DNA of 64,000 bases from a virus. Taxonomy: Duplodnaviria; Caudoviricetes. The stretch lies in IMG/VR virus record IMGVR_UViG_3300007214_000055, positions 2,209 to 66,208 of that record; one strand, 5' to 3'. The notes below the pieces were generated by a model that saw nothing but the letters and a program-made list of their open reading frames with translations, searched no databases and was not told where the DNA came from. Positions 1,212 through 19,160 of this stretch are shown one piece after another. Position 1 is the stretch's first letter; each line of letters starts with the position of its first letter. The translations under genes were made by a program, and so were the position numbers.

Positions 1212-1270
1212 CACCACCCGCTATGGTATGCTCACCGAGAGCGTCAGTAGCGGTACGCCTCGCAGGTGAC

Positions 1271-1600
1271 TTAGGTAGATGCCAATCCCTGAGTTGCCTC
1301 GTTTAACCAGAGCAGGATCGCGTCTTCTCTGTTAGGAGACCACCAGCTCTGCTGTCTAAACCAGCGTTGCCAGTCGAGCTCACTACCTTTGGCGCGGTTG
1401 CATGGCACACAGCAGCACACCAAGTTCGTTCGGTCTCGTTGGCCGCCACGGCATCTCGGTCGCACGTGGTCCAAGGTGTCCCCGGGCTGCCCGCAATACG
1501 CGCAAAGGGACCCCCAACTACTGAGGATCCCTTCTCGAAACTGTTTTTTGGCTTGCCGCTTGGTCGTGAGACTGGAGCCATCGATCCGATGGTCAACCAT
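1271..1600 (-). CDS. HNH endonuclease
   Basis: CAYCG...TLDHVRPRCRGG...NLVCCCVPCNRAKG; likely start is the ATG at 1600 (MVDHRIDG). Confidence 0.9.
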   Translation of the reverse strand: MVDHRIDGSSLTTKRQAKKQFREGILSSWGSLCAYCGQPGDTLDHVRPRCRGGQRDRTNLVCCCVPCNRAKGSELDWQRWFRQQSWWSPNREDAILLWLNEATQGLAST

Positions 1601-1654
1601 GCTCTGGCTGGGTGGCTGCTTCAGCCTAGCGATTGGTCCATTTGTCAACCCCTC

Positions 1655-1729
1655 GCAAGTCCGTTACCATCTGCAGATGTCCGTTACCAAGCGCAGATGT
1701 CCGTTACCAAATACGCAAATCAGTTACCA
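1655..1729. repeat. Four tandem ~20 bp repeats (GCAGATGTCCGTTACCA core)
   Basis: GTTACCA at 1663, 1683, 1703 and 1723, an exact 20 bp period, in the HNH-portal intergenic gap. Confidence 0.9.
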
Positions 1730-1777
1730 GATGCAGCTGCATAAGTTGCTAGCTACCTATGAGTCTGTGCACAAACC

Positions 1778-1787
1778 GCTAAACTGC
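1778..1787 (+). promoter_or_regulatory. Putative late promoter -10 element (GCTAAACTGC)
   Basis: About 30 nt upstream of the portal ATG; the same CTA(A/G)ACT motif recurs before several late genes. Confidence 0.5.
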
Positions 1788-1816
1788 AGATAGCTCTCCC
1801 CGAGCCCGTTTGTGCT

Positions 1817-3631: not shown

Positions 3632-3634
3632 TCA

Positions 3635-6472
3635 GTGACGCGACACAACACCACTCCCGAAGGCTTCCGCACCGCGGCCTACTTGGCTACCAAGGCCCGC
3701 CTTGACGCCGCCCGCAGCCGCACTGGTAAAACAGCCCGCGGCGTCGATTGCAACCCACCCAACGTCAAGTGCGGAGGCCGCTGCATTCCCCCTGACTGGG
3801 ACTGCCGCCTTCACAACAAGGGCAGCGATCCTCATCTCCGCGCTCTTCGTACCGACCCTGTCAGCGGCCTGGCCAATATCGAGCGCGGTGTCAAACGACT
3901 GCGCGTAGGCGTCCGCAAGGGCAGCTTCTCCGAGATCGAAGGTGGCAAGCGCGCCATCGTGCGCGGTATCGTCAAAGCCACTCCTGGTGACTTGCAGCGC
4001 AAGCGGGCTCTCCAAGCGCAGCTCGAGCGCCGTGCTGGCGGCATAGCCCTCGGTCTAAGCATCGTCGGTTTCGGCTTGTTCAGCCACAACCAACTGAAGC
4101 GGGCCCCCTTCTACCGCGACGGCGTGGGCCGCCAGATCGATGACGCCGTAGCTGCCGGCATCAGCCGGGTTCTCGATAGCACCCCCGGCATCCGGGGCGC
4201 CCGCGCTGAGCGCCGCGCCGCTGGCGCCGCAGTCGCTGCGGCAGCCGTAGGACGCGCTGCCGCCGAGGCCGCCATAGGCCCTGCCGCACGTCGTACTGCC
4301 CTACTTCAGACACCCACCGAGCTCGAACGGCGCGCCACTGCGTACGGCAACGCCCGAGTCTTGTTAAATCGCATCGGAGCTGTCGATATTGATGCTGCCA
4401 ACCGCGGTGGTAACGCTGAAACCTGGCGTCAAAAAAGCCTAGAAGCTTTCTGGAGCTCCAAACGCACCAACGCCGCCGGTGCTGGAGATGGCAGCACCTT
4501 CTCTGAGCCCGCCACTCACGAATACCTGTCGCGGCAGTTTGGTTTTAACTTAGGCACAAACGCTTCAGATACTGATGTTCGCCGCTCTCTCACAGGCGCG
4601 TTGAATCGCGAAGCTGCTAGCCTTCAGGCCCTCGCCCGCCAACAGAACGTTGATATAAACAATGCCGAAGATCGCAGTCGTTTTCTCAATCGCCTAGTCG
4701 GTCCCAGCACACCCAATTTCCCCGAGAACGTCCGCGAGCGCGCTGTCGGCAACCTCAATCAAATACTCGGCGCTGCTCCTCGTACCCGGGAAGCAGCAGT
4801 CAGTCGTACTGAACTCGCTAATCACATTTATCGTCAAACCCGCGACGGCTTTGATCAGTACTTTGGCCGTATCGCTGATGAAGTTCGCCAAACCGCAGGC
4901 GTGGCTATGCCTACTGCGCAGCGGCAGGCTGGCTATAGCGACTTGATGAATAGCGCGCGTATCGGTCATTCTCGTTATCTCGCTACGCGTCTAAATAAGC
5001 CAAGCCTCATAAACGAGCGCATGGGACAAGGCCTATCTGACGTTGTTGCAAAGGAGTATTTTGCTCGGCAAGTAATGGCCAGCAGCTCATTCAGCCTGTC
5101 GCCACGAGAGACGCGGACCGCCGCCTCCGAGCTCGCAGGACGCAACATCACCGGCCTCAACGAAGCCACCCGCTATTTGCAGGAAAACGGTTTTCCTCGT
5201 CTGGTACCGGTTAGCGCACCTGCGGGACCAACAGCACCTGGGACGCGTCGCAGACGTCCTAATGTCCAGGCGCAGATCACCGACCTTGCTCGCTCCCTGC
5301 GCGAAGCTGCTCAGAGCCGCGGCGAGGATATGAGCCTTGAGGCTTCGTACCGCGCTGCGCGCGCCGAAATTGCTCGCCGCCAGCGCGGTGACGCCCTACC
5401 TCCCGGCTTGATGCGCACAGCCACCTACCTGGCTGTCCGTGCCGATCTCCGCGGCGAGGGAAAGCCCTGCGGTGCTTCGCACATTCCGAAGGCCCATACG
5501 TGCACGAAGGGGCAAGGCTCTGTAGAAAAGAAGGAACGACAGCTCTACGAGAAGAGTGCCACTAAAGCAGAGAAAGCTTACGTAAAAAAGCATGGTATGC
5601 CTAAAGATACGCTAAGTCTTGTAGAAGCTCAGCTAGAGCTAGAGAAAGAAACCAAGCAAACTAAACCTTCGCTCAAAACCGTAGCCACTGCAGCATTGGC
5701 TACAGGTGCAGTGGTTGGGGCAGCCGCGTTAATGACGGATCCCAAGGCTCGCCAGCGAGTGCGTGTTGAATCTCGCCTACTTATTCGTGGCTCAGATAAA
5801 GCAATCCGCCGAGCTCTAATGATCGGTGGCCGCGGCTCGATTGCCGGTTTGTCCGCCAAACAGGTTAAAGAGGGGTTGGATCGGCTGCCTTCAACGCTTC
5901 AAGGCCCAGCACGCAAACTGGTCGGGGCTGCCAAACAAGGTGCTGCAGCAATGGCACTTAAAGCCGAAGGTTTTACAATTCAAGACATTGACGTGGTAAA
6001 CAATTATTCAACATGGAAAAGCAAAAAAGGAACGTTGATCTCTATAGGTTCTTACGGAGATAGTTTAGTTACTTATGCTTCGGATAATTCGCACTCGTGG
6101 CAAGGTAAAAGAGTGTACAAAATAGGCTTTAATGTTGATCAGAACTTTGATGCGACGCGCAATATCCCCGCAGAACAAGCCAGAACTATAACCACAGCAG
6201 TGCGCAAGATGACCGACAATCATCTGGCTAAGATAAACAACGGTATTCTTGCTACTTTTCCGTGGGACGGCGACGAATTTGGAGCTAAGCGCCGAGCTAT
6301 TTATACTCGGGCAGGATTTAACAACATCATAGGCGAAGATTCACAGTGGGCTCTTGTGGAAAAAGGTCGCATCAAAAAGATGACTGAATCACAAGCATTT
6401 TTGTATTTGGCCGAATCCGGTGAACGCGACGCACCGATATATAAACCTAGTAAAAGGGAGCGCAGGGCTTGA
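3635..6472 (+). CDS. Modular head-associated polyprotein (2 Cys-motif units, C-terminal GNAT-like domain)
   Basis: 945 aa ORF between portal and MuF. Carries KCGGRCIPPDWDC and KPCGASHIPKAHTC, each followed by a hydrophobic helix; C-terminal KRRAIYTRAGF. Confidence 0.7.
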   Translation: MTRHNTTPEGFRTAAYLATKARLDAARSRTGKTARGVDCNPPNVKCGGRCIPPDWDCRLHNKGSDPHLRALRTDPVSGLANIERGVKRLRVGVRKGSFSEIEGGKRAIVRGIVKATPGDLQRKRALQAQLERRAGGIALGLSIVGFGLFSHNQLKRAPFYRDGVGRQIDDAVAAGISRVLDSTPGIRGARAERRAAGAAVAAAAVGRAAAEAAIGPAARRTALLQTPTELERRATAYGNARVLLNRIGAVDIDAANRGGNAETWRQKSLEAFWSSKRTNAAGAGDGSTFSEPATHEYLSRQFGFNLGTNASDTDVRRSLTGALNREAASLQALARQQNVDINNAEDRSRFLNRLVGPSTPNFPENVRERAVGNLNQILGAAPRTREAAVSRTELANHIYRQTRDGFDQYFGRIADEVRQTAGVAMPTAQRQAGYSDLMNSARIGHSRYLATRLNKPSLINERMGQGLSDVVAKEYFARQVMASSSFSLSPRETRTAASELAGRNITGLNEATRYLQENGFPRLVPVSAPAGPTAPGTRRRRPNVQAQITDLARSLREAAQSRGEDMSLEASYRAARAEIARRQRGDALPPGLMRTATYLAVRADLRGEGKPCGASHIPKAHTCTKGQGSVEKKERQLYEKSATKAEKAYVKKHGMPKDTLSLVEAQLELEKETKQTKPSLKTVATAALATGAVVGAAALMTDPKARQRVRVESRLLIRGSDKAIRRALMIGGRGSIAGLSAKQVKEGLDRLPSTLQGPARKLVGAAKQGAAAMALKAEGFTIQDIDVVNNYSTWKSKKGTLISIGSYGDSLVTYASDNSHSWQGKRVYKIGFNVDQNFDATRNIPAEQARTITTAVRKMTDNHLAKINNGILATFPWDGDEFGAKRRAIYTRAGFNNIIGEDSQWALVEKGRIKKMTESQAFLYLAESGERDAPIYKPSKRERRA

Positions 6473-7335
6473 TGAAGCTCCTTGAGCGCTACAACTCAGC
6501 CCTCCGTCGCTCCGAGGACGTCACCATCACCCAGCTCAACCGCATCCTCGAAAGCAGCTTCAACCGCTTACTCCGTCGTACCCGCATTCACCTGCGCAGT
6601 GGAACCCCAGCAGCCAGCCGCAACGTCGCCCTCCTGCAAGAGTTTCGCCAGCTCATCCCCGCTTTCCGCCCCGATCGCATCGACGCCTACGACCGTGTTT
6701 TACGTAGCCTGTTTCGCAGCTCTGAGCGCAGCGGCACCACTGTCGCCCGAGAACTTCTGCGTGACATCGCCCCTGAGCGCCGCCGCATTGACGTCGACAT
6801 CCCCATCGAAGCCACCGTGGCCGCTGCTGCACAGGCTCGAGGCTACCTCCGCCGCCATGGCGAAGCCTTTGCCACCACTGCCACCGAGCTCGTTGCCCAA
6901 GGTGTAACCGAAGGCCGCTCGACCGACGCCATCACCCAAGACATCCGACTGCGCCTCAACGTGGTGAAGTCCCGCGCTGACGTCATTGCCCGCACCGAAT
7001 CACTCCGCGCCTACAACGCTGCCAGCAACCAGTACTACGCCGCCAACGGCATCGATCTCGTCATGTGGTATGCCACCAGCGATGACCGCACCTGTCCTAT
7101 TTGCAACGCTCGGGCCGGCCGTATCTACAAGCGTGCCAGTACAAACGCACCAGCCCACCCACGCTGCCGCTGCTACCTCGCACCCTGGGACCCCGAGATC
7201 GCGGCTATGGATCCCGAGTACGCGTCCCTACCCCGCCGCCATCGCGAAGAAGTGTCTCGCGTGGCGACGGTTGGCCCCGCTGACCTCAGCCGCGCCGCAG
7301 TCTTTGAGCAGTTTGCTCCGCAGCCCTTCGATTGA
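6469..7335 (+). CDS. Head morphogenesis protein (SPP1 gp7 / MuF-like)
   Basis: RADVIARTESLRAYN...WYATSDDRTCPICNAR...PAHPRCRC signature. Confidence 0.88.
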   Translation: MMKLLERYNSALRRSEDVTITQLNRILESSFNRLLRRTRIHLRSGTPAASRNVALLQEFRQLIPAFRPDRIDAYDRVLRSLFRSSERSGTTVARELLRDIAPERRRIDVDIPIEATVAAAAQARGYLRRHGEAFATTATELVAQGVTEGRSTDAITQDIRLRLNVVKSRADVIARTESLRAYNAASNQYYAANGIDLVMWYATSDDRTCPICNARAGRIYKRASTNAPAHPRCRCYLAPWDPEIAAMDPEYASLPRRHREEVSRVATVGPADLSRAAVFEQFAPQPFD

Positions 7336-7575
7336 TCAGCCGAGCAAGCGCCGCTTGGCCTTATCGAGGGCGACATTTGCACTGGTCCCAACTACGCCAG
7401 ATGGGAAAAATAGAGCCGCTGTAGTCATCCATCTATCAAGGCAGGTATTAGCACTACCTTTGTTCAAAAGATTGGGTACTTCACAAGCACCCACAAAAAA
7501 AGTAGCAAATACAAGCTGCCCGATCAGTAACCCGGATCCGGCTCCACTACCCACTAGCAATCGAATCAAGTTCAT
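7336..7575 (-). CDS. Small hypothetical membrane protein
   Basis: 79 aa with two hydrophobic segments; fills the gap on the opposite strand. Confidence 0.5.
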   Translation of the reverse strand: MNLIRLLVGSGAGSGLLIGQLVFATFFVGACEVPNLLNKGSANTCLDRWMTTAALFFPSGVVGTSANVALDKAKRRLLG

Positions 7576-7661
7576 GGTCTGCCGTGCAGTTGCCCCAGCT
7601 TATCGGTCCCTATACCACAAAGCAGCTACGCTGTGTGCACTAACACCTGGGGCTCGACGCC

Positions 7662-8705
7662 ATGCCCGCCACCGCTCGCCGTTCTAAATCCGAGGCCTAC
7701 GAGAAGGGCATTCGTGAAGGTGCTGCCATGGCGCGCCGTTCTCGTAATATGGAGCCGCCTGAAGAAGAAGAAGAGGAAGAAGAGGAGGAGATGGACATGG
7801 CTCTGCAACCCGGGCATTCGCGCAAACGCAGCGCTAAAGGTGCCAAAAACACAAAGCCTGCCGCCGATGGGTACGGCACAAAGCGGCCCATGGACGCCGA
7901 GTGCGGCTGTAGCGGCAAAAAAGGTGGCAAGTGTGACGGCAGTTGCGACTCGACGCGCAAGCGCAGCGATGCCCTAACCCCCATCGAGTACCTCACCGCC
8001 TGCGAGCTCGGCATCCAAGACCGCAGCCGCTCCTATATCCGCGCCCGTCTCGACGCCACCGAGCGCCTCGACCTCAAATGCGGTAAGGGCTCCATCTCCG
8101 AGGGCGAAAAGTGCACAAAAGGTGCCGCAACTAAGGTACAACCTAATAAATATGCGAATTACGCTCCTAGCAAGATCACACTGAGAGGCGAAGAAACCGG
8201 AATCCTAAGCAGAAAGCGGATTCAGCGAGAAGGCTTTGCTGGCGCTGCGTATGGTGGTGACCCTTTCAGCCGCAAGGAACAAGCCAAGCGCGTGGCAGCG
8301 GTTAACGCATCTATTGTGGGTGGTATAGGAGCCGTTAGGGGCTACCAGATGGGCGGCCTCGGGGGTGCTCTAGTGGGAGGTCTTGCAGGTGCTGCATACG
8401 GCGGAGCTGTAGGCGCCTTACAGGGAGCCAATAGTGCCCAGCGAAATCGCGCAACCAGCAACGCCGCACGCATCTCGCTTGAAAGGCAGAAATTTGAGAA
8501 GCCGCGCGTAGCTCGCTTCAAAGCCCAACGTGCAAAAATGGTGGAAGCAGGAGCCTCACGCTCGGAACTTCGAGAACAAGATATGAAGAATGCCATGACC
8601 CTAGCCAAGGGTTACGACAGAATCTATAAGCGTAATCGTGGTCGTTATGGTGACTCGATATACGCTCAAGGATTCACCCCGGATATGGACCAACTCGACA
8701 TCTGA
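7662..8705 (+). CDS. Modular head-associated protein (poly-Glu, Cys-rich patch, Cys-motif unit, glycine zipper)
   Basis: E10 tract, ECGCSGKKGGKCDGSC, RLDLKCGKGSISEGEKC, GGLGGALVGGLAG, and C-terminal DSIYAQGF. Confidence 0.7.
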   Translation: MPATARRSKSEAYEKGIREGAAMARRSRNMEPPEEEEEEEEEEMDMALQPGHSRKRSAKGAKNTKPAADGYGTKRPMDAECGCSGKKGGKCDGSCDSTRKRSDALTPIEYLTACELGIQDRSRSYIRARLDATERLDLKCGKGSISEGEKCTKGAATKVQPNKYANYAPSKITLRGEETGILSRKRIQREGFAGAAYGGDPFSRKEQAKRVAAVNASIVGGIGAVRGYQMGGLGGALVGGLAGAAYGGAVGALQGANSAQRNRATSNAARISLERQKFEKPRVARFKAQRAKMVEAGASRSELREQDMKNAMTLAKGYDRIYKRNRGRYGDSIYAQGFTPDMDQLDI

Positions 8706-8708
8706 CCC

Positions 8709-9236
8709 ATGGCCCTGACCCCTGCAACCCTACGCCTCGACCTCAAATGTGGCCGCGGCTCCATCTCCGAGGGCGAAAAGTGCACCAAGGGCGCTGCTCA
8801 GCAGGTGCAGCCTGCGCGGCAGTCACAAGTTAAACGCTCACGCAACAAAGCTATTAAAACTGTTCTACTAGCAGCTGCATTAGGTGCAGGTATCGGGGCA
8901 GTTCGAGGTGGTCTTAGTGCACGAAAGTCCCGTAAAGCATATGCGGAGGGCGCATTATCTAAGATCAAACGTTTGAAAGCTAAAGGCAACGACACACTGC
9001 TAGCTGCGCTTAAGTCAGCTAAAAACAGTCAAGCAATGGGTATGAATGACCCTAGAACACAAGCGAGGCAATACGCCAACATCATGCAGGCTAAGACCAC
9101 ACGAGGACTAGCTAGACGCGCCGCGCGTGAAGGCCTAGCTGAACTAAAAGCGATCGTTCCTCTGTCCCCTGCCCGTAGGCGTGCTGCACGTCGTGGCCGC
9201 CGCGATTCTGTCTGGGCGGAGGGCTTCGACTCATGA
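8709..9236 (+). CDS. Modular head-associated protein (Cys-motif unit)
   Basis: MALTPATLRLDLKCGRGSISEGEKC...VLLAAALGAGIGAV...RRDSVWAEGF. Confidence 0.75.
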   Translation: MALTPATLRLDLKCGRGSISEGEKCTKGAAQQVQPARQSQVKRSRNKAIKTVLLAAALGAGIGAVRGGLSARKSRKAYAEGALSKIKRLKAKGNDTLLAALKSAKNSQAMGMNDPRTQARQYANIMQAKTTRGLARRAAREGLAELKAIVPLSPARRRAARRGRRDSVWAEGFDS

Positions 9237-9736
9237 CTATCACACGCAACGACGTCTTCATCGGCAACAAAAAGCTGAACTGCGGCCAAAACTCCAAGCC
9301 GTGCGGTAACGCCTGCATTCCTAAGGACCACAAGTGCCGTGCGTCCTGGAATAAGCCTGTGAAGCTCGCCGCCGGTGCCGCCGCACTCACCGGTGCAGCC
9401 ATCGTCGGTACGGCGTTCCTTCACCCGAGGGCGTCCATGCGCAGCGCCGCACGCCAAACCATCGAACCGGCGCTGCAGACCGGCTTCGCTGTCGGCAACG
9501 TCGCCCGCGGCAACTGGGCCGGTGCAGCCAAGAACGCGGCCAACGTGGCTGCCACAGGCGAGGGAATAGGTCGCAACCTGAGCACCTTGGCCAAGGGCTA
9601 CGGCACCGACATCAAAAACGCGGTCAACCGAGGACGGAACGCGGCGTTCAAGATGCGCTACCACCGCCCAGCCAAACGCCGCGACTCTGTCTGGGCTGCC
9701 GGCTTCACCCCCATGCCCGACACCTTCGACATCTGA
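9233..9736 (+). CDS. Modular head-associated protein (Cys-motif unit)
   Basis: RND...KPCGNACIPKDHKC...LAAGAAALTGAAIVG...RRDSVWAAGF. Confidence 0.75.
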   Translation: MTITRNDVFIGNKKLNCGQNSKPCGNACIPKDHKCRASWNKPVKLAAGAAALTGAAIVGTAFLHPRASMRSAARQTIEPALQTGFAVGNVARGNWAGAAKNAANVAATGEGIGRNLSTLAKGYGTDIKNAVNRGRNAAFKMRYHRPAKRRDSVWAAGFTPMPDTFDI

Positions 9737-9739
9737 CCC

Positions 9740-12415
9740 ATGGCACTGACTCCTGCGACCCTACGCCTTGACCTCAAGTGTGGCCGCGGAGCCATTTCCG
9801 CAGGTGAAAAGTGTCACGTAGGCCCTGCTACCAAAGTGCAGGAGAAACCCGCTGCGGCGAAAACAGAGCGCAGGGGATTAACAGGTCAGGAAAAAGCACA
9901 AGTTGCCGGGCTAGCTGCGTATGCGGCGTTAGGTGCAGTTACGCTATATCAGATGAAGAATATACGTAAAGCCTATAGTGAGAAATTTGATCCTGCACAA
10001 CGCTATAAACCATTCGAAGATACATTGGGGGATCCCAGTGACGTGCTTAATAATATCGCTAGTGCGGCTAAGCAAGCTGCACCCTCTCTATTCGGCGATG
10101 TGAGCTTCGGTAAGTACAAAGATAAAGATGTTGTCGTTAAAAGCTTCGGTAAAAAAGGAGCTATGGGGGCAATGCAAATTGGGCTTATGCAGCAACAAGG
10201 CATCCTGTCAAAGAACACAGCCGACGCGCTCGTACGAGGGCAAAATGCCCTCCAGATGAACGAAGTACAGGGTGCTTTCCTCGCCGGCCAACATGGCATC
10301 GGCCCCAAGGTTGTCGCAGCCGGCAATGGCACACGTCGGACCCTGTTTGGCCCAGAGCGCTCAAACATACTTGTCACCGAAGTCGCCAAAGGCCGCCCCC
10401 TTTCCAGTCAGGACGCCCTTATACGCCAAGGCCCTAAACTACAGGCGCAACTGCAGCAGAACCCAGGAGCTGCAATTAAAAAGATTGCTGCGCTCCGATG
10501 GCGCGGCTTTACCAAAGGCACCGAAATAAGTTCAGTGAACAAAGACCGCATCATTCGCAACATGGCAAAGATGCACACCTTGGGTATGTCTCATAACGAC
10601 TTGCACCCAGGGAACATTTTCATCAGTAAGGAAGGCGCGCAGTTCATCGACTTTGGCACCTCCTCTCGCGGTGGAGCTTCCGTCGCCTCCGAGTTCGTCC
10701 GCCTGATGAACCCGCCTCGCACCGGTCTGCAGCAAGCCGGCGGCATGGGGTACAACTTGCGCAGTATGGATCCCCAGGGCTACAAGACTGCTGAAGCGCG
10801 CATCCGCCAAGTCATTGGGAAACGCGTAGGTAAACTCACTTCTGCTGATATTCAAAAAGCACTTTCTAAAACCAAAGACAAGAACACGCTCGAATCCAAT
10901 TTGCAGCGTATCGTCGATGATTTTTATCAGCAGTACGAAAAGCGCTCTCGCACCGACGCTCTGACCCCCGCCTCCATTCGCCTTGACCCCGCCGGCACCA
11001 AGGTGGCTGCCATGGAGAAGCGCCTGCGCTCCGAGGGCGAGCAGAAAGGCCTCACTGGCGATCGCCTCGAGGCCTACATCTACGGCACCCTCAACAAGAT
11101 GGGTTACAAGCGGGGCAGCAAGACCACACGCAAGGGCGCAGCCAAGGCCAAGCGCACTGATGCTGCACGCAGCAAACCCTGCGGAGAGAGCCACATCCCG
11201 GCCAGCCACACCTGCCGCAAACGCGGCTCCTTTCCTTCACGCAAGGTCATCGCCGCAGGCCTCACCGCTGGCGCCATTGGCGCTGTGCTGCTCAACAAAG
11301 AAAGCCGCCGCGCCGTGCTCGGTGCGCCGCAAGCCGCCCGGCGCATGACACAGCGCGGCATCACCGAGCTCGTCCACCGCGCCACCGCCAAGCCTCCTTC
11401 GATGCGGCTTACGCCCAAGGCGCTTGAGCAGCTAAAGCCACCATCCAAAACGCTGCGACTGCACAGAGCTGCACAGCAGGCCAACAAGAGCGCAGAGCGT
11501 GCCATCGCTCGCGCTGCTCAAGCAGAAGTCGAACGCGGCCTAGCTGTAGGCAACGCCATGTACGCCGCGGGCAAAGCCACTCGAGCCTCCCTGCGCAGTG
11601 GCCTCCGTCGCCACAACCTCACCGTGGAAAAGCTTCGCCGCCGCTACGAGCCCGGGTACCGCAAACCGCGCACAGACAACTACATCCAGTACTACGCACC
11701 GGTACAAATACAGCCGCCTATACGCCAAGACGCAGAGCGCCGTGATGTCCAATTTGTGGACAAGGAATTACACGCCGCCGTCAAAGCCGAGGCAAAGCGT
11801 AAGTTCAAGATCTACCCGAGCGCGTACGCCAACGCCTGGATGGTACAGGAGTACAAAAAACGCGGCGGTACCTTCCGCAACGACGCGCTCGACAAGTGGT
11901 TTCAGGAAAAGTGGGTGCGCATGAGCAGCTCCGGCCGCATCCTCGGCCCCTGCGGCGACCGCACCGAGGGCGAAGGCAAGCCGAAATGCCTTCCCGCGGC
12001 CAACGCCATGGCGCTTTCCCCCACTGAACGTCGCCGCCTCGTCGCCCGCAAACGCCGCAACGATCCCCGCAAAGAGCGCACCGGCGCTCCCGTCATGGTG
12101 AGCTCCAAAACCGACGTCTGGGCCGCCGGCTTCGACACCGAGGACGGCAAGAAGTACTCCAAAAAGGTCCGCGACCCCGAGACCGGCCGCACCCGCACCG
12201 TCCGCTATGGCGCCAAGGGCTACACCATCGCCCCCGGCACGGACAAAGGCGACCGCTACTGCGCCCGCAGCTTCGGCGACATGAAGTCCCACGGCAAGGA
12301 CTGCGCCGGTGCTGACCGCAACACCCCCCTCTGCCTGTCTCGGGCCAAGTGGCGCTGCAGTGGCAAGGTATCGCGGCGCGACGAAGCCCTAACGCCGGGA
12401 AAGTCCTCGGCCTAG
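9740..12415 (+). CDS. Modular polyprotein with protein kinase domain and several small basic domains
   Basis: Kinase motifs VVVK (Lys at 10138-10140), HNDLHPGN (10592-10615) and DFG (10649-10657); two Cys-motif units; YPSAYANAW and KWFQEKW mini-domains. Confidence 0.82.
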   Translation: MALTPATLRLDLKCGRGAISAGEKCHVGPATKVQEKPAAAKTERRGLTGQEKAQVAGLAAYAALGAVTLYQMKNIRKAYSEKFDPAQRYKPFEDTLGDPSDVLNNIASAAKQAAPSLFGDVSFGKYKDKDVVVKSFGKKGAMGAMQIGLMQQQGILSKNTADALVRGQNALQMNEVQGAFLAGQHGIGPKVVAAGNGTRRTLFGPERSNILVTEVAKGRPLSSQDALIRQGPKLQAQLQQNPGAAIKKIAALRWRGFTKGTEISSVNKDRIIRNMAKMHTLGMSHNDLHPGNIFISKEGAQFIDFGTSSRGGASVASEFVRLMNPPRTGLQQAGGMGYNLRSMDPQGYKTAEARIRQVIGKRVGKLTSADIQKALSKTKDKNTLESNLQRIVDDFYQQYEKRSRTDALTPASIRLDPAGTKVAAMEKRLRSEGEQKGLTGDRLEAYIYGTLNKMGYKRGSKTTRKGAAKAKRTDAARSKPCGESHIPASHTCRKRGSFPSRKVIAAGLTAGAIGAVLLNKESRRAVLGAPQAARRMTQRGITELVHRATAKPPSMRLTPKALEQLKPPSKTLRLHRAAQQANKSAERAIARAAQAEVERGLAVGNAMYAAGKATRASLRSGLRRHNLTVEKLRRRYEPGYRKPRTDNYIQYYAPVQIQPPIRQDAERRDVQFVDKELHAAVKAEAKRKFKIYPSAYANAWMVQEYKKRGGTFRNDALDKWFQEKWVRMSSSGRILGPCGDRTEGEGKPKCLPAANAMALSPTERRRLVARKRRNDPRKERTGAPVMVSSKTDVWAAGFDTEDGKKYSKKVRDPETGRTRTVRYGAKGYTIAPGTDKGDRYCARSFGDMKSHGKDCAGADRNTPLCLSRAKWRCSGKVSRRDEALTPGKSSA
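12397..12403 (+). other. Putative -1 ribosomal frameshift slippery site G GGA AAG
   Basis: Lambda gpG/T-type heptamer in the correct phase, 4 codons before the TAG of the 9740 ORF; the -1 frame is open for ~368 codons. Confidence 0.65.
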
Positions 12416-13509
12416 CGCGAACCGACGCCCCCAAGGGCGGCAAGGGAAAGCCCTGTGGTAATTCGCACATAGCTAAAGCGTACAAGTGCAACAAAAAAGC
12501 AGGTGGTCTAACTGCTAAAAATCTCAAAACGGCTGCTAAAGTTGCAGTTGTTCTAGGCGCGCTAGCCGGAGGTACTGCCATCGCTAGAAAATGGAATGCG
12601 ACGGACGATAAAAAGTTAGCCGAAGCGCTTCAAGCTAACAAAACGTGGGACGTCTACGAGCAAAAGCGCCAAGAAGATGCCATCGACCCCGAGGTCGCAG
12701 AACTGCGTGCTCAGCGCGAACAACGGCGCGCTCGTTTTTGTGGGAGAACTGATTCGGAAAAGCCATTGGCCGGGCGCAATGACGCATATCAATCTTGCTC
12801 CCGGCAAATTGGTGAACAATCAGCTTACGGAACGCTGTTTGTACATCCAGATGGACAACGTGTATTCAAAGTCCCTACGGGGAGTCAATCATATTACATC
12901 ACAAAACAGCAAGCTATTGAAGCGTCACGTAACGAGTTCAAAGCTCTTGTAGAAGCTAAACAAGTAGGCGTAAACGTACCCAATCCTATAAGCATTAACC
13001 CCAGCACAGGCGTGCTACAAATGGAATACATACCCAATAGTGTAACGCTACGTGCGTTTAATAAAACTAACACATCCCCGCTTACAGCGCGCCAGATTAC
13101 AGATAATTTACTAGCACAAACACAAAAGCTACATAGATCTGGAATCGCACACAATGATCTACACTCTGGTAATGTCTTAGTTACACCAAATACTAAAGTT
13201 GCTATCATCGACTTCGGTTTAGCCACCACCCTACGCACCGAAGGTAGACGCGAAGTAATGGATAGCATTCATGCTGAACTAGGTACGGTAGTTAGGCGCG
13301 CCTCAGTTATTAACAAGTTTCAATCAAGCGAGATACATAAATGGATTATGACAAGAAACTCCCCCTCACTTAATAAACTACAGCAAGGAAACGTGTCAGA
13401 CGCGCAGTTAAAACTTATAATTGATAGGTTTTATATAGATCTGCATGATGCTCTACAGTTCAAAAGAAGAAACCCCACTACAATTTTACGGCTTAGCACT
13501 CCTGTTTAA
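12403..13509 (+). CDS. Second protein kinase module (probably expressed as a -1 frameshift extension)
   Basis: KPCGNSHIAKAYKC plus hydrophobic helix, then RVFK, NE, LQMEYI, HNDLHSGN (13150-13173) and IIDFG (DFG 13210-13218). No convincing independent start. Confidence 0.8.
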   Translation, partial: VLGLARTDAPKGGKGKPCGNSHIAKAYKCNKKAGGLTAKNLKTAAKVAVVLGALAGGTAIARKWNATDDKKLAEALQANKTWDVYEQKRQEDAIDPEVAELRAQREQRRARFCGRTDSEKPLAGRNDAYQSCSRQIGEQSAYGTLFVHPDGQRVFKVPTGSQSYYITKQQAIEASRNEFKALVEAKQVGVNVPNPISINPSTGVLQMEYIPNSVTLRAFNKTNTSPLTARQITDNLLAQTQKLHRSGIAHNDLHSGNVLVTPNTKVAIIDFGLATTLRTEGRREVMDSIHAELGTVVRRASVINKFQSSEIHKWIMTRNSPSLNKLQQGNVSDAQLKLIIDRFYIDLHDALQFKRRNPTTILRLSTPV

Positions 13510-13596
13510 GCACTAACCCTTAAGCTTTCAGCCACCGCTACGTTCGTAAACTTTTAGCAGCCCACTGTAGTCTTACTACAGCAGCGCTAGTTACCC

Positions 13597-14862
13597 GTGG
13601 GCCAACGCATTGTCGACAACGACCGCTACGAACTCGAGTACGTCCGCGGCGATGTCGAATATCCAGTACCCGTCCTCGCCAATACCGGCACAAGCGGTGA
13701 CGCCTTCGGCCGCCTCCGTACGAGCTCCCCTTTCACAGTCTTCGATAGCCAGCATCGCTACCAAGAAAACGACAAATGGGACACAGCACTAAATGGCGGT
13801 GGCACTAAAACCTATGTTGCAAACGAAAGTGCCATCAATCTCACGGTCCCCACTACCTCAGGCGCTTACGTCTATCGCGAAACCAAGCGCGTTTTCCCGT
13901 ACCAGCCAGGCAAGTCGCTGCTTGTGATGACATCGTTTGCCTTTGCTGCTGCGCAGGCCAACCTGCGCCAACGCATTGGCTACTTCAGCACGCAGAATGG
14001 TATCTATCTCGAGAACGACGGCACCGCCATCTATCTCGTCCGCCGCAGCTACGTCACCGGAAGCGTAGTCAATACCCGCATCGCCCAGGCCGACTGGAAC
14101 GGCGACAAGCTCGACGGCACCGGTCTCTCGAAGCGCACCCTTGACCTCTCCAAAACCCAGATCTTCTGGCTCGACATCGAGTGGCTGGGCGTCGGCGACG
14201 TCCGCTGCGGCTTCGTTGTTGACGGCCGCATGGTCATCGCCCACACCTTCCACGGTGACAACGTCAACACCACCAGCTACATGACCACCGCGGTGCTTCC
14301 ACTCCGCCAAGAAATCGAAAACACCAACACCATCGCCGCATCTGCCACCGCCAAGCAGATTTGCGCCACCGTCGCTTCCGAGGGCGGATACGAAGGCTTC
14401 AGCCGCCGTTACAACCTTTCAACTGGAGCTACTGCCATAACACTTACAACTGCAGGTACCAGCTACCCCATTATGGCTATACGACTTAATAGCACGCGTT
14501 TGGATAGTGTTATCGTGCCCTCAAACGTTAGTGCCGCCGTAGAGCAAACGACTAACAACAAACTAGACATCGTACAGTACCAAATACTATTAAATCCAAC
14601 GATTAGCGGTGGTACCTGGGCGACGCATGCTAACAACAACGTACAGTACAATACTACTATCAGTAGTTTCACTGGTGGCACCGAAATTGCAGGTGGCTAC
14701 CTTACGAGCTCGTCCTCCCTTGATCTCGGGAGCATCACCGATTTTAACTTTCAGCTTGGTCGTACCATTGCCGGTACCAGTGATGTTCTACTCATAGCAG
14801 CTATCCCAACAAACGATGCTGCCAAACTCTTCCTCGACTTGGCGTGGTTTGAGATCGTCTAA
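13597..14862 (+). CDS. Virion structural protein (cyanophage type)
   Basis: DAFGRLRTSSPFTVFDSQHRY and beta-rich lectin-like composition, recalled from cyanophage structural proteins. Confidence 0.6.
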   Translation: MGQRIVDNDRYELEYVRGDVEYPVPVLANTGTSGDAFGRLRTSSPFTVFDSQHRYQENDKWDTALNGGGTKTYVANESAINLTVPTTSGAYVYRETKRVFPYQPGKSLLVMTSFAFAAAQANLRQRIGYFSTQNGIYLENDGTAIYLVRRSYVTGSVVNTRIAQADWNGDKLDGTGLSKRTLDLSKTQIFWLDIEWLGVGDVRCGFVVDGRMVIAHTFHGDNVNTTSYMTTAVLPLRQEIENTNTIAASATAKQICATVASEGGYEGFSRRYNLSTGATAITLTTAGTSYPIMAIRLNSTRLDSVIVPSNVSAAVEQTTNNKLDIVQYQILLNPTISGGTWATHANNNVQYNTTISSFTGGTEIAGGYLTSSSSLDLGSITDFNFQLGRTIAGTSDVLLIAAIPTNDAAKLFLDLAWFEIV

Positions 14863-15078
14863 TCAAATATCTTTTACAAGCTCTTGCAGTCTTATGTCAT
14901 AGACTTCACTCAACGCTATTAGCTTCATAACGGAAACTTCTATTTCACCTTTTTCAAGCCTAGAATAAGCAGCTTGACTAACACCAAGTCTTTCTGCAAT
15001 TTCTAGTTGCGTGAGTTTATGGTACTCACGTAACGCCCTAATTCGCCTACATAAAGTCAGCTGTCGGTGAATCGCCAT
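14863..15078 (-). CDS. XRE-family helix-turn-helix regulator
   Basis: RIRALREYHKLTQLEIAERLGVSQAAYSRLEKGE; start ATG at 15078. Confidence 0.88.
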   Translation of the reverse strand: MAIHRQLTLCRRIRALREYHKLTQLEIAERLGVSQAAYSRLEKGEIEVSVMKLIALSEVYDIRLQELVKDI

Positions 15079-15140
15079 GCTCCATAACCGCTTTGTGCAT
15101 AACGCTAACCAAGCGCACAAGAACCGGTAAGCTATTAAGC

Positions 15141-16412
15141 ATGGAAACATCAGTGTCCAGGTACGACTTCGCTCCCATAACCGGAAGCGAGACCACCCCC
15201 GAGGGCTACCTCCGGGTCTGGTGTCGTGCTGCCCGCTCAGGTACGCAGCTATACCGCCGCGCTGATGGCTCCCAAGTCCGCGAATACAGGCCTCCCGAAG
15301 AGGTCGGTAGCCCGGACTCCCTCGCCACGTTCGGCATGAAGCCTGCAACGTGGGGTCACCCTCCGGTTCTTCTCGATTCCGCCAACACCAAGCAGTTCCA
15401 GGTCGGCTACTCCGGTAGCCAGGTCCGGTACAACGACGGTTTTGTCGAAGTCGCGCTCGTCGTCACCGACGCCGATGCCATCGAGAAGATCAAGCGCAAA
15501 GATGCCACCGAGGTATCCGCCGGCTACAAAGTCGATTTCGACCCCACCCCCGGGATCACCCCCGAGGGCGAAGAGTACGCCGGTGTCCAGCGCAACATCC
15601 GGGTCAACCACATCGCCATTGTCCCCCGCGGCCGGGCTGGCCCGGAGGTACGACTCTTGCTCGATCGCATGGATGCAGCCGATGCTGTAGCCGCCTTCCC
15701 CGAGCACGAAATGGCGCCCCAGTCCAGTTCAACTGCATCTCCCGTTATGGCAACCGTCAAACTCGACGGCCTGGAGATCGATCTGCCCGCAGAAGCAGCC
15801 AGCGCGGTCCAGTCCTACTCCCGGGACATGGGGCGCCAACTGCAAGCACTCGCCACCGAGCGCGATGAGCTTGCCACCAAGCTCGACTCTCTGCAGGCCG
15901 ACTTCGACTCCCTGGCCTACGACAAAGAGGCCGCTGAAGGTCGTGCCGACGCCCTCGAGGAGCAGCTCGCTGCTTCCAGCGGCGCGCGCATCGATACCGC
16001 CGAGCTCGACCAGCTCGTCGCCAAGCGCCTCGCCACCCTGCAGCGCCTGGCGCCTGCATTCACCGAGGACTTCAAATTCGACGGCATCGACGACACCTCG
16101 CTGTACGTCCAAGCTTTCGAGAATCTCACCGGATCCGCACCCAGCGAAGACGTTGAGCCCGCCTACATCCAAGGCGTGGTTGAAGGTATCCTCGCTGCTC
16201 GCGCAGACACCGAAGAGGACGACGCAGATTCTGAGGACGACTCCGCCCCTGGCGAGGAGCCCACAGAGGACGCCGAGCCTGATCGTGCCGACAGCACCGA
16301 CACCCTGCGTGACGCGCTGAAAGGTGCCGGCCGCTCCACCGACAACCCGATCACTGCTTATCGCAGCCGCACGGTTGACGCTTGGAAACGTCCCCTCACC
16401 GCTACCAAGTAA
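15141..16412 (+). CDS. DUF2213 prohead protease / scaffold
   Basis: TPEGYL...ARSGTQLY...TWGHPP...EVSAGY...QRNIRVNHIAIVPRGRAG, followed by a coiled-coil and acidic scaffold tail. Confidence 0.85.
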   Translation: METSVSRYDFAPITGSETTPEGYLRVWCRAARSGTQLYRRADGSQVREYRPPEEVGSPDSLATFGMKPATWGHPPVLLDSANTKQFQVGYSGSQVRYNDGFVEVALVVTDADAIEKIKRKDATEVSAGYKVDFDPTPGITPEGEEYAGVQRNIRVNHIAIVPRGRAGPEVRLLLDRMDAADAVAAFPEHEMAPQSSSTASPVMATVKLDGLEIDLPAEAASAVQSYSRDMGRQLQALATERDELATKLDSLQADFDSLAYDKEAAEGRADALEEQLAASSGARIDTAELDQLVAKRLATLQRLAPAFTEDFKFDGIDDTSLYVQAFENLTGSAPSEDVEPAYIQGVVEGILAARADTEEDDADSEDDSAPGEEPTEDAEPDRADSTDTLRDALKGAGRSTDNPITAYRSRTVDAWKRPLTATK

Positions 16413-16424
16413 GGAGTACCTCCA

Positions 16425-17045
16425 ATGGCCGTTTCTTTCACCCCCACCGTTGTCAGCAACCCGACTGGCGCCCAAGGCAGCTACCCCCTGGAGCTGACCG
16501 TTGGCCATGAAGGCATGATCGCTGACCTGCAGGCCTACGTGTCCCGCAGCTACTACAACCAGTCCGGCGTCGCTATTCCCTTCGGCTCCCTGGTTGCCAC
16601 CGACAACGACCCCGCCTCCAACGATCCCTTCGCCGTCCTGCTGGCCCCCAGCGGTACTGGTGTGGTGGGTCTGGCAGTCGACAGTCTGACCTTCGAGGGC
16701 GTTGGCGGCAGCTCCGCCTACACCCCCAACCCCACCAACGTCATCGGCGATGGCTCCCTTCGTGTGGGCTATCCCAACGGACAGACCATGAACGTCGTCT
16801 CCAAAGGCGTCGTCTGGGTCTACAGCACCGCTGCCATCGCCCTCGGTGATGCAGTGCGTTTCTTTGGTGTGGACCACTCAGCCACCGTCACCGGTGCCTA
16901 TGTCGGTCGCTTCACCAAAACCGCCGTGGCCAACAAAACCTTCGCCATGACTGGCGGGGCTCGCTGGCTATCTGAAACCAGTGGCGCCGGCCTGGTTCTC
17001 CTCGAGATCGACATCCCGGGGATCACCTTCACCGCCGACACCTGA
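16425..17045 (+). CDS. Capsid cement/decoration protein
   Basis: Between scaffold and MCP; AIPFGSLV...MNVVSKGVVWV pattern. Confidence 0.7.
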   Translation: MAVSFTPTVVSNPTGAQGSYPLELTVGHEGMIADLQAYVSRSYYNQSGVAIPFGSLVATDNDPASNDPFAVLLAPSGTGVVGLAVDSLTFEGVGGSSAYTPNPTNVIGDGSLRVGYPNGQTMNVVSKGVVWVYSTAAIALGDAVRFFGVDHSATVTGAYVGRFTKTAVANKTFAMTGGARWLSETSGAGLVLLEIDIPGITFTADT

Positions 17046-17061
17046 TCCCGGAGCCCCTCCC

Positions 17062-17979
17062 ATGACCACCGAAATCCGTAACGACTCGGTCGGCCTCTTT
17101 CTCGCTCGCGAGCTGGAAACCATCCTCGCCCGCGCATTTGAAGTCGAGTACGCCGACATCAAGTACAGCGCCGTTATCCCCGTATCTTCCGAGGTCGGTA
17201 ACGGTATGGATTCCTTCACCTATCGCGTCTTCGACAAGCAAGGCTCGATGAAGGTAATCGGCGACAAAGCCCAGGACCTGCCTCGTGCTGACGTGCTCCG
17301 CAAGGAAGTCACTCACCCGGTTCGCAGCCTTGGTGCATCTTTCGCCTACACCGTTCAAGAAACTCGGGCTGCCGCCATGGTGCCCGGCATGAACCTGGAG
17401 CAGCGCCGTGCCAACGCTGTGCGCCGCGCCTACGAAGAGAAAGTGCAGGAGATCGCCTACTTCGGCGATGCCCCCTCCGGCATGAAGGGCTTCTTCAACA
17501 ACAACCAGGTGGACAAGCTTGTACCGGACCACTGGTTCGATACTGCGGACATCACCACCGACGAGATGCTGCAACTGCTCAACGAACCCGCCACGCGGAT
17601 CGTGCAGAACAGCAACATGAAGGAGATGCCCAACACGATGCTGGTGCCCTACAACGTGTACCGCATCATCTCCACCACCCCGCGCAGCACCACCTCCGAC
17701 ACCACGGTGATGGAGTTCTTCCTGCGCACCAATCCGATGATCACCGCGATCGAGCCCATCAACGAGCTCGAGGCCTCCAAGTCCGGCGGCGTCCTTTCCA
17801 AGGACCGCGTGATCTGCTACGACCGCAGCCCTGACAAGCTGCAACTGCACGTACCGCAGCCTCTCGAGTTCTTCCCGCCTGTGCGCACCGAGCTCGAGTT
17901 TTCCGTTGCGGCACACGCCCGCATCGGCGGCCTCGCGCTCTACTACCCCAAGAGCGCCATCGTGCTCGAAAAGGCCTGA
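17062..17979 (+). CDS. Major capsid protein (DUF2184 / encapsulin-like HK97 fold)
   Basis: FLARELETI...YSAVIPV...YTVQETRAA...IAYFGD...GFFNN...RIGGLALYYP; start ATG at 17062. Confidence 0.88.
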   Translation: MTTEIRNDSVGLFLARELETILARAFEVEYADIKYSAVIPVSSEVGNGMDSFTYRVFDKQGSMKVIGDKAQDLPRADVLRKEVTHPVRSLGASFAYTVQETRAAAMVPGMNLEQRRANAVRRAYEEKVQEIAYFGDAPSGMKGFFNNNQVDKLVPDHWFDTADITTDEMLQLLNEPATRIVQNSNMKEMPNTMLVPYNVYRIISTTPRSTTSDTTVMEFFLRTNPMITAIEPINELEASKSGGVLSKDRVICYDRSPDKLQLHVPQPLEFFPPVRTELEFSVAAHARIGGLALYYPKSAIVLEKA

Positions 17980-18031
17980 TTCAGGCTTGCGGCTTCGCGT
18001 TTGCTTTGTTGGCTCTTTCATTTCTCTGATC

Positions 18032-18445
18032 ATGATCCTCGTTTACCGACCCGAACTCGAAAGTCCTCCAATGGACCCAGAGTGCACGATTGGCTTTTCC
18101 TTTGTTCAACAAAATGGACAGCCGGAAAACGTACAAGTGAAGTCCGGCGTAAACCGCGATTTCCCCGACACCGTGTGGGAACAGATCAAGGACTACGACG
18201 TCGTCAAAAACATGCTCAAACTGGGTGCTCTGCGCATCGAAGATGAGCAGTTCGTCGTGGCGGATCCCGCAGCAGTCGCTGATGTGGACTCCGTCGCAGA
18301 CATGCCTGTCACCCAGGCCCTGCGCCTGGTGGAAGACAGCTTTGACGTCACCCAACTCAAGGGTTGGGAGTCCAGTGAGCAGCGCATTCGCGTCCGCAAC
18401 GCCATCAGCAAACGCATCGCCGCCATCACGGAAGGTAACGGCTGA
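18032..18445 (+). CDS. Hypothetical head-associated protein
   Basis: ORF between MCP and adaptor; start ATG at 18032. Confidence 0.65.
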   Translation: MILVYRPELESPPMDPECTIGFSFVQQNGQPENVQVKSGVNRDFPDTVWEQIKDYDVVKNMLKLGALRIEDEQFVVADPAAVADVDSVADMPVTQALRLVEDSFDVTQLKGWESSEQRIRVRNAISKRIAAITEGNG

Positions 18446-18753
18446 TGGCAGTCCCCACCTCGTACGAGTTCCTTCAGCGCTTCCCCGAGTTCGGTGAGCT
18501 TTCGCTTGCCGTAGTCGAAGGCGCACTCGTAGAGGCTGGTCGCGCTACCCCCGCAACCAATTGGGGCGCCATTCATACCGAGGCCGTCAGCTACCTGGCA
18601 GCCCACATCCTTTCCACCCGGGTGATGCAGGTCGGTCTACAGGTCGGCAGTCAAGCCGGCCAGCCCTTAGGTACTGGCTTCGCCGCCAGTCTCTACGGCC
18701 AGGAGTACGAGCGCCTCAAAGGCATGCTCCCTCTTTCTGGATTTGCGCTGTAG
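18445..18753 (+). CDS. Head-tail adaptor (DUF4054-like)
   Basis: FLQRFPEF...YLAAHIL...SLYGQEYERL signature. Confidence 0.8.
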   Translation: MAVPTSYEFLQRFPEFGELSLAVVEGALVEAGRATPATNWGAIHTEAVSYLAAHILSTRVMQVGLQVGSQAGQPLGTGFAASLYGQEYERLKGMLPLSGFAL

Positions 18754-18755
18754 CC

Positions 18756-19160
18756 ATGACCATCTCAGATGCCACAATCGCCAGCTACGCCCCCTGGGGC
18801 AATGCTCAGCTGGCGTTTGAAGTCGGAGGCCAGGTCTTCAGCACCGACCCTGACACAGGCAACGCAGTTCAATTCACCGAGACCGTCGAATACCTGGCTG
18901 CCCTAAAACTCGAAGCACCTGCTTGGAATGGGCAGCCCGGAGCCGACAACTCGAGCTACAGCTGCAGTGGGCGCCTTCTCAGTCCGGCTCGTCTTGATCC
19001 TCGGATCACCAACGGCAGCCAAGCTGAGGCACTGATCAACGGTTATCGCGGCCGGTTCGAGCTCGTTTTCGATCTCGACATGGATCGCGCGGCCTATCAG
19101 GACATTCGGCAGTCAATCCAAGGCACATTCCGTGTCATCGGAGGCGCTATCAGTGGCTAA
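18756..19160 (+). CDS. Head closure / neck protein
   Basis: Position and size; start ATG at 18756. Confidence 0.55.
   Translation: MTISDATIASYAPWGNAQLAFEVGGQVFSTDPDTGNAVQFTETVEYLAALKLEAPAWNGQPGADNSSYSCSGRLLSPARLDPRITNGSQAEALINGYRGRFELVFDLDMDRAAYQDIRQSIQGTFRVIGGAISG

Follow-up and report, generated by a model that had tools for sequence, protein, structure and literature searches.

Why would a phage encode two protein-kinase-like domains among the genes that build its head? The question is raised by a stretch of a Caudoviricetes genome, IMG/VR record IMGVR_UViG_3300007214_000055, of which we analysed positions 2,209 to 66,208 (64 kb, hereafter the window, numbered from its first nucleotide). 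The record is a single contig of 66,208 bp without end repeats, with a CheckV completeness of ~95%. Kinase 1 comprises residues 75-400 of p891, the product of a long open reading frame (ORF), and kinase 2 comprises residues 146-386 of p386, encoded by the ORF that overlaps its end. The best explanation, which we regard as on balance probable, is that both domains serve as payloads in a modular cargo array, the genes of which lie between those of the portal and MuF and that of the prohead protease; they may be delivered with the DNA. Comparison with related loci strongly supports a further conclusion, that kinase 2 is likely made mainly when a -1 frameshift extends the polyprotein that contains kinase 1.

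The p891 protein is composed of two modules. Module 1 contains a leader, a Cys loop, a helix, and kinase 1. Module 2 contains a second Cys loop and helix, followed by a DUF5872 domain and a small Cys-rich domain. Kinase 2 is preceded by a leader, a Cys loop, and a helix of its own. The features of the two kinase modules are as follows.

9740 to 12415, plus strand: p891 polyprotein ORF (0 frame)
9743 to 9814, plus strand: leader of the kinase 1 module, ALTPATLRLD (R-x-D end), then the Cys loop KCGRGAISAGEKC; kept in all kinase 1 homologues
9896 to 9955, plus strand: Gly/Ala-rich hydrophobic helix of the kinase 1 module
9962 to 10939, plus strand: kinase 1 domain, p891 amino acids 75-400
10091 to 10117, plus strand: kinase 1 G-loop FGDVSFGKY
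10139 to 10141, plus strand: kinase 1 β3 lysine K134
within 10256 to 10279, plus strand: kinase 1 αC glutamate E175
10592 to 10615, plus strand: kinase 1 HNDLHPGN
10649 to 10657, plus strand: kinase 1 DFG
10949 to 10987, plus strand: RTD-ALTPASIRLD inter-module linker right after kinase 1, with two R-x-D motifs; the post-kinase R-x-D is conserved in homologues
12349 to 13509, plus strand: p386 ORF as called by the ORF finder
12418 to 12585, plus strand: leader of the kinase 2 module, RTD-APKGGKGKPCGNSHIAKAYKC (Cys loop), and hydrophobic helix AAKVAVVLGALAGGTAIA (12532-12585)
12745 to 12786, plus strand: RTD-S and RND-A motifs separating the helix from kinase 2; the linker, disordered in the model, contains the invariant D145
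12766 to 13509, plus strand: kinase 2 domain
12811 to 12831, plus strand: kinase 2 loop GEQSAYG
12868 to 12870, plus strand: kinase 2 K174
within 12931 to 12948, plus strand: kinase 2 E196
13150 to 13173, plus strand: kinase 2 HNDLHSGN
13210 to 13218, plus strand: kinase 2 DFG

The ATP-site lysine, the catalytic loop HNDLH(P/S)GN, and the DFG motif, which the initial annotation had read in both domains, are present at these positions and conserved in homologues, and both motif sets are far beyond chance. The catalytic set comprises K134, E175, H285-N-D287, N292, and D304 in kinase 1, and K174, E196, H268-N-D270, N275, and D288 in kinase 2; these residues are invariant or at least 90% conserved across homologues. 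Kinase 1 is the more divergent of the two. An exhaustive search of 1.84 billion representative proteins identified 16 cluster representatives related to it at E<=1e-10. In Pfam, kinase 1 has only sub-threshold matches to its catalytic loop and no RIO1 match, and a profile built from 15 of its homologues matches protein kinases in the PDB at 1.5e-11. Kinase 2 scores above the Pfam cut-offs for RIO1 (4.8e-14; 52.8 bits vs 22), ABC1, and Pkinase, and the profile of 24 of its homologues matches Bud32, RIO1, TP53RK, StkP, and PknB in the PDB, with a best value of 3.7e-13.

AlphaFold (AF2) models of both domains have a confident kinase fold, with a predicted local distance difference test score (pLDDT) of 85.2 and a predicted template modelling score (pTM) of 0.82 for kinase 1, and a pLDDT of 91.7 and a pTM of 0.87 for kinase 2. 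Helices follow the DFG motif in both models (H238-322 in kinase 1, H161-235 in kinase 2). The kinase 1 model matches the CurKC kinase (7wj6) with a Z score of 11.3 (root-mean-square deviation (rmsd) 5.5, 188 residues aligned), TkArkI with 11.2, and Rio2 with 11.0. The kinase 2 model matches Rio1 (1zp9) with a Z score of 16.7 (rmsd 2.9, 178 aligned), Rio2 with 16.2, and Ark1 with 15.7, and PKR is also matched; the first-ranked Foldseek match of this model is PRPK/Bud32. All of the best 50 structural matches of each domain are kinases. Profiles, predicted folds, and near-invariant active-site residues agree with the initial view that both domains are catalytically complete and protein-kinase-like, and it is very likely that both are active-type kinases resembling RIO and Bud32, their activity being predicted.

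By curated criteria, the two kinases appear to lie outside the RIO, Bud32, T7 gp0.7, and APH families, and neither domain reaches a curated family cut-off, generic Pfam domains excepted. The NCBIfam Rio1 model gives kinase 2 41 bits vs a cut-off of 480, and the Pfam RIO1 cut-off is passed alongside those of ABC1 and Pkinase. Bud32 ranks first in NCBIfam for kinase 2 (1.3e-17, far under cut-off), and the Bud32 equivalog cut-offs are missed (best 64 bits vs 188, and 62 vs 125). No match to the Kae1/TsaD partner (PF00814) was found in the 66-kb genome. The nucleotide loop of RIO kinases is STGKEA. Kinase 2 has GEQSAYG in its place and kinase 1 has FGDVSFG, neither of which is of the RIO type. RIO, Bud32/PRPK, and Ark1 are nevertheless the closest known kinases to both domains, with which they share the compact kinase fold, the short C-lobe, and the Lys/Glu/HxD/Asn/DFG set; they differ from them in scores far under the family cut-offs, the missing Kae1/TsaD, the GEQSAYG loop (kinase 2), and the setting in a phage head module. 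The best matches also speak against small-molecule kinases of the APH or choline type, in line with the initial reading as protein kinases, and nothing in this evidence indicates inactive domains. The Pfam APH match is confined to the catalytic loop (44 residues, 34 bits), Choline_kinase is under its cut-off, and no APH, choline kinase, WaaP, or KdkA structure is among the best 50 structural matches, although absence from such a list is not decisive.

How kinase 2 is translated is indicated by the junction of the two ORFs, which contains the following elements.

12397 to 12403, plus strand: slippery heptamer G_GGA_AAG in the p891 frame, the candidate -1 site
12403 to 13509, plus strand: -1 frame continuation, p386 amino acids 19-386
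12413 to 12415, plus strand: 0-frame stop TAG, three sense codons past the heptamer

The p386 ORF opens in the -1 frame before p891 ends, and the p891 frame there reads CCG GGA AAG TCC TCG GCC TAG. After the heptamer, the -1 frame is open for 368 further codons. The predicted fusion consists of p891 amino acids 1-888 and p386 amino acids 19-386, and its 1256 amino acids include both kinases. A -1 slip yields ...RRDEALTPGK followed directly by VLGLARTDAPKGGKGKPCG..., whereby the usual leader grammar is restored, and the predicted trans-frame product spans ...ALTPGKVLGLAR.... This product equals that of homologues fused in frame, which read ...ALTPGK-V(L/V)GL... (P0002, P0004, P0005; L002, L012, L013), the last three being relative loci in which both frames form a single one.

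In 36 occurrences, which represent 29 distinct contexts, the GKPCG motif follows the heptamer at a distance of exactly 48 nt. The arrangement is kept in 34 of the 36; in these, a long 0-frame ORF ends within 2-6 codons, counted from the beginning of GGA, and the -1 frame runs for hundreds of codons where the contig permits. In 17 occurrences no ATG, GTG, or TTG precedes the heptamer in the -1 frame, and in 13 this frame opens only 4-11 codons ahead of it. All 16 aligned sequences carry the block GCCGGGAAAGT unchanged. In E. coli, G_GGA_AAG is reported to be highly prone to shifting (PMC5009743). RNAalifold and single-sequence folding revealed no hairpin or pseudoknot that could stimulate the frameshift; the nearby 0-frame stop may be the sole stimulator.

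The closest precedent is the -1 frameshift of lambda G/GT, which uses the same heptamer, near a 0-frame stop, with a -1 frame that lacks its own start (PMC5009743). The site described here differs in that it is located in a head-cargo block instead of a tail chaperone gene, appends an enzyme module, and has no detected stimulatory RNA structure. The initial annotation of two kinases is accurate for two complete domains and has to be revised for two separate genes, since kinase 2 is apparently a -1 extension of the kinase 1 polyprotein. The two kinases would therefore be one translational unit with two stoichiometries.

The kinases are encoded inside the head-morphogenesis module, as had been recognized at the outset. 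The MuF gene lies upstream, 2.4 kb from p891, and the genes of the DUF2213 protease and the capsid protein lie downstream. In the plus-strand gene order, p891 and p386 stand between p167 and the structural protein.

12 to 1211, plus strand: terminase-like ORF
1817 to 3631, plus strand: portal
3635 to 6472, plus strand: p945
6469 to 7335, plus strand: MuF-like minor head protein (PF04233, 8e-17)
7662 to 9736, plus strand: p347, p175, and p167
13597 to 14862, plus strand: virion structural protein (phrog_1645)
15093 to 16412, plus strand: DUF2213 prohead protease/scaffold, the presumed processing enzyme
between the DUF2213 protease and the major capsid protein, plus strand: 206-amino-acid protein
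17062 to 17979, plus strand: major capsid protein with the conserved N-terminal MTTEIRND/S (PF09950, 3e-55)

A promoter and terminator scan of window positions 1-19000 performed no better than shuffles, so co-orientation with the head genes is all that the proposed late expression of the kinases rests on. The sole minus-strand ORF within the head operon (14863-15348) is located just upstream of the protease gene, and gp021 of phage S-CBS4, annotated as a transcriptional repressor, matches it in place and orientation. Synechococcus siphophage S-CBS4 is the nearest cultured phage by capsid protein (55% amino-acid identity). The C-terminal domain of p945 (amino acids ~700-945, window 5735-6472) is 81% identical in locus L070 and has no match in Pfam, PHROG, or NCBIfam; inspected by eye only, the end of p945 carries a GNAT-like ...RAIYTRAGF... 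stretch.

The proteins p945, p347, p175, p167, p891, and p386 share recurring elements: a leader that ends in R-x-D, for example ALTPATLRLD, a two-Cys loop of the form KCGxGxISxGEKC or CGxSHIPxxHxC, a Gly/Ala-rich helix, and a payload. Several modules end in C-terminal RRDSVWAxGF. The tag D-S-(V/I)-(W/Y)-A-x-G-F terminates p347, p175, and p167 (window 8652-9736) and also occurs inside p891 (TDVWAAGF). The R-x-D motif is enriched in the block (24 observed vs 12.4 expected, 0 of 300 shuffles reaching 24) and in the head proteins (20 vs 10.7, reached in 1 of 300 shuffles), and is not enriched in tail and other proteins (13 vs 11.8). It is found within the first 8-20 residues of the capsid protein (MTTEIRND/S, 17062-17090; MSEFRMD/E in S-CBS4), the portal (FRND/G, 1817-1860), and the structural protein (13597-13660), and is conserved there in all relatives including S-CBS4. 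R-x-D is a candidate cleavage code of the DUF2213 protease.

The motif differs in position between the two kinases. The residue D145, as part of [RK]-x-D, is invariant in every kinase 2 homologue and is placed in a linker just before the kinase that is disordered in the AlphaFold model. Homologues of kinase 1 have no conserved R-x-D between the helix and the kinase, and always have one right after the kinase. The motif layout in homologues fits the earlier reading that kinase 1 would stay joined to its helix and kinase 2 would be split from its helix at RTD and RND sites.

An alignment-based scan of IMG/VR identified 77 related loci, all on contigs of uncultured viruses; a single-sequence pattern scan of viral contigs found none. 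By tblastn, the 77 loci share the order terminase-like ORF, portal, p945-like protein, MuF, variable modules, sometimes a structural protein, protease, and capsid. The portal-to-protease interval measures 5.2-11.5 kb in the 25 loci that span the whole block. At least one kinase catalytic motif is present in 17 of these complete blocks, and the remaining 8 have none. Kinases occupy three positions. The kinase 1 type sits after a module leader, and the kinase 2 type immediately precedes the structural protein or the protease. One relative, L024 (8099-11431), has two kinases within one ORF. The third type forms the C-terminal end of a p945-like protein, just upstream of MuF (L027:6137-6523, L040:7272-7676, L043:4110-4496, L074:7921-8325, L008:6637-7101); p945 of the window carries a different domain there.

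The same leader precedes other payloads in relatives, namely an ADP-ribosyltransferase (P0030, PF03496), a zincin-like domain (PF07737-like, under the Pfam cut-off), and a J domain, and many block payloads match no family. ORFs with such payloads, including the zincin-like and J domains, are located at L076:7144-8643 and L030:7702-9054. An in-frame fusion of portal and p945 in relatives was considered and rejected, as a stop separates them in every locus.

In cultured phages, megablast, tblastn, and blastn searches detected nothing related to the kinases, to p945, or to the small modules, and the kinases have no tblastn match at 1e-5 among 50,697 phage records. In 185,579 prokaryote species genomes, the scan matched generic cellular kinases only, and the block was not found as a prophage. 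S-CBS4 has the same protease and capsid genes, with glycosyltransferases and a methyltransferase in place of the block. Because the block is variable, with 8 of 25 lacking a kinase, is absent from cultured phages and species genomes, and is replaced in S-CBS4, the kinases appear from these comparisons to be accessory, swappable cargo and not assembly machinery. Among the window cargo searched, only the two small C-terminal domains that close p891, DUF5872 (window 11756-12052) and the ~85-amino-acid Cys-rich domain (12140-12397), match cultured phages. Their stand-alone homologues occur in cyanomyophages S-TIM5, S-TIM54, S-TIM61, and S-TIM66, in roseophages CRP-212 and CRP-207, and in Vibrio phages.

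We propose the following mechanism. The ribosome would slip by -1 on G_GGA_AAG, five codons ahead of the p891 stop if the GGA codon is included, to give a minority fusion of 1256 amino acids, and kinase 2 would be reached only through this slip. The p891 products would enter proheads alongside the other head proteins, and the DUF2213 protease would cut after R-x-D, so that kinase 2 would be freed as a soluble domain and kinase 1 left on its helix. Both kinases would then leave the head together with the DNA, and their host targets would be phosphorylated ahead of phage gene expression. Frameshifting would set a low copy number of kinase 2, as in Gag-Pol for retroviral enzymes; the likeness to Gag-Pol is a minority fusion bearing an extra domain. 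From position, shared motifs, and precedent (PMC5512222, PMC5576092), we infer that the products are probably packaged and processed at R-x-D. Ejection of the kinases and early phosphorylation of host proteins may occur, and we consider this possible at somewhat lower confidence. More tentative, and to be doubted as it stands, is a full Gag-Pol-like mode of phage delivery, in which an R-x-D-cut polyprotein, with kinase 2 dosed by frameshifting, would supply anchored and soluble kinases that rewire the host before transcription. That the glycine-rich helix would anchor one kinase at the entry site in such a scheme is an equally tentative suggestion.

Several observations weigh against cargo delivery and against its parts. 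The searches found no cultured relative that has the block, and siphovirus-type phages are not generally known for large sets of internal head proteins. Cleavage at R-x-D is a motif statistic only. A GTG at window position 12349 could start kinase 2 independently; this codon is a by-product of conserved 0-frame Lys-Trp codons, and in many relatives a stop intervenes after it. No conserved RNA structure was detected 3' of the heptamer, where RNAalifold gave no covarying helix and the single-sequence fold has z = 0.19. Finally, the nearest structural relatives RIO and Bud32 are mainly ATPases and Ark1 is an RNA kinase, so a protein substrate is not assured.

This last point leads to an unlikely alternative, in which packaged or late-made kinases act on non-protein substrates, either envelope sugars and lipids, as Kdo/WaaP-type enzymes do, or RNA. 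A helix-anchored enzyme at the entry site would suit Kdo/WaaP-type envelope action, the Pfam Kdo/WaaP model is above its cut-off for kinase 2 (24.3 bits) and reaches 1e-10 and 6.5e-11 in relatives, and the KdkA and RfaY models match in NCBIfam. Ark1, an archaeal tRNA 2'-O-kinase, and ArkI are among the best structural matches (Z 15.7 for kinase 2, Z 11.2 for kinase 1), and both domains have the short C-lobe of minimal kinases and lack the activation-loop APE motif. However, RIO, Bud32, and classical Ser/Thr kinases outscore Kdo/WaaP in every search, and none of the best 50 structural matches is a WaaP, KdkA, or APH structure, although such a list cannot exclude them. A role on the producer side is a little less likely still: the kinases would phosphorylate head, scaffold, or portal proteins, or act as ATPase switches in prohead assembly. 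Their genes are within the morphogenesis operon, and RIO and Bud32 are generally known as ATPase checkpoints in the assembly of large complexes. An assembly factor is nevertheless at odds with the 8 of 25 complete blocks of close relatives that have no kinase, with the exchange of kinases for ADP-ribosyltransferase, zincin-like, and J domains, which is the pattern of accessory conflict cargo, and with S-CBS4, which has the same protease and capsid genes without the block.

It is improbable that the modules are late membrane proteins of the infected cell, serving superinfection exclusion or lysis timing and never entering the capsid, with their helices as ordinary anchors. Every module does contain a hydrophobic helix, and packaging is so far a prediction. 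Yet the helices are Gly/Ala-rich and only moderately hydrophobic (Kyte-Doolittle mean 1.2-1.8), the modules share R-x-D with bona fide head proteins, and in every relative their genes are enclosed by those of MuF and the protease. An assembly indel is conceivable in a single window, and kinase 1 is very divergent, with sub-threshold Pfam scores; a frame change caused by sequencing error or gene decay, with one or both kinases as inactive relics, is nevertheless effectively excluded, since the heptamer, the frame relation, and the long open -1 frame are kept in 29 distinct contexts from independent metagenomes. The catalytic residues are, moreover, all invariant or nearly so in both kinase families. 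Of these explanations, modular cargo encoded between MuF and the protease remains the one that we prefer.

Cargo of this kind has partial counterparts in known systems. The internal proteins and Alt of phage T4 carry an N-terminal capsid-targeting leader that ends in a protease motif, are packaged into the head, and are ejected with the DNA. The proposed logic is the same; the motif here is R-x-D vs L/I-x-E in T4, the leader continues into a Cys loop and a hydrophobic helix, and the system here is a predicted one. T7 gp0.7 is the product of an early, non-virion gene. Its phosphorylation of host translation factors is cited in PMC5512222. It resembles the present kinases as a phage-encoded kinase with a supposed early role in redirecting host proteins (PMC5512222, citing Robertson and Nicholson 1992); the present kinases differ in being encoded in a head module and in showing no tblastn similarity to cultured phage records.

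MuF-linked polymorphic toxins are known from temperate phages (Jamet et al. 2017, PMC5576092). They likewise have variable effector domains genetically linked to MuF in the head module, with the difference that the toxins are fused to the MuF C-terminus in temperate phages, whereas the present cargo follows a stand-alone MuF and no prophage copy of it was found in the 185,579 species genomes.

Protein kinases have been predicted as virion-delivered domains of phage and plasmid polyvalent proteins (Iyer, Burroughs, Anand, de Souza, Aravind 2017, PMC5512222). These kinases belong, like those described here, to the Ser/Thr/Tyr superfamily, are MuF-adjacent, and are predicted virion riders that modify host proteins on entry, with cassette-like variability that includes ADP-ribosyltransferases and peptidases. 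As in polyvalent proteins, several effectors are joined in one polypeptide: p891 combines kinase 1, DUF5872, and the small domain, to which kinase 2 is added after the frameshift. However, the polyvalent-protein clade, found in elements of Verrucomicrobia/Chlamydia and Bacteroidetes, has no C-terminal subdomain and carries an insert between the catalytic His and Asp (PMC5512222), whereas both kinases here have a contiguous H-N-D and a helical C-lobe. Further differences are the stand-alone MuF gene and the split, leader-tagged modules, one of them reached via a frameshift. The idea of virion-delivered effectors, polyvalent or MuF-linked, is known; the kinase lineages, the split leader-tagged modules, and the conserved -1 frameshift that would dose kinase 2 are new.

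Enzymes carried in phage heads act before phage gene expression, in the window of time when most bacterial defences decide the outcome of infection. Kinase cargo had so far been only predicted, and in another clade. Here, two more lineages, predicted to be catalytically intact, recur as swappable cargo across a group of uncultured phages, and the kinase 2 lineage is linked with a frameshift site that is conserved and is not part of a tail-chaperone gene. If delivery holds true, the locus would provide a testable case of translational dosing of a delivered effector, and its grammar of leader, Cys loop, helix, and R-x-D would help to spot capsid-delivered proteins in viromes. The domains would then represent new minimal kinases, the targets of which could expose host pathways that are important in the first minutes of infection.

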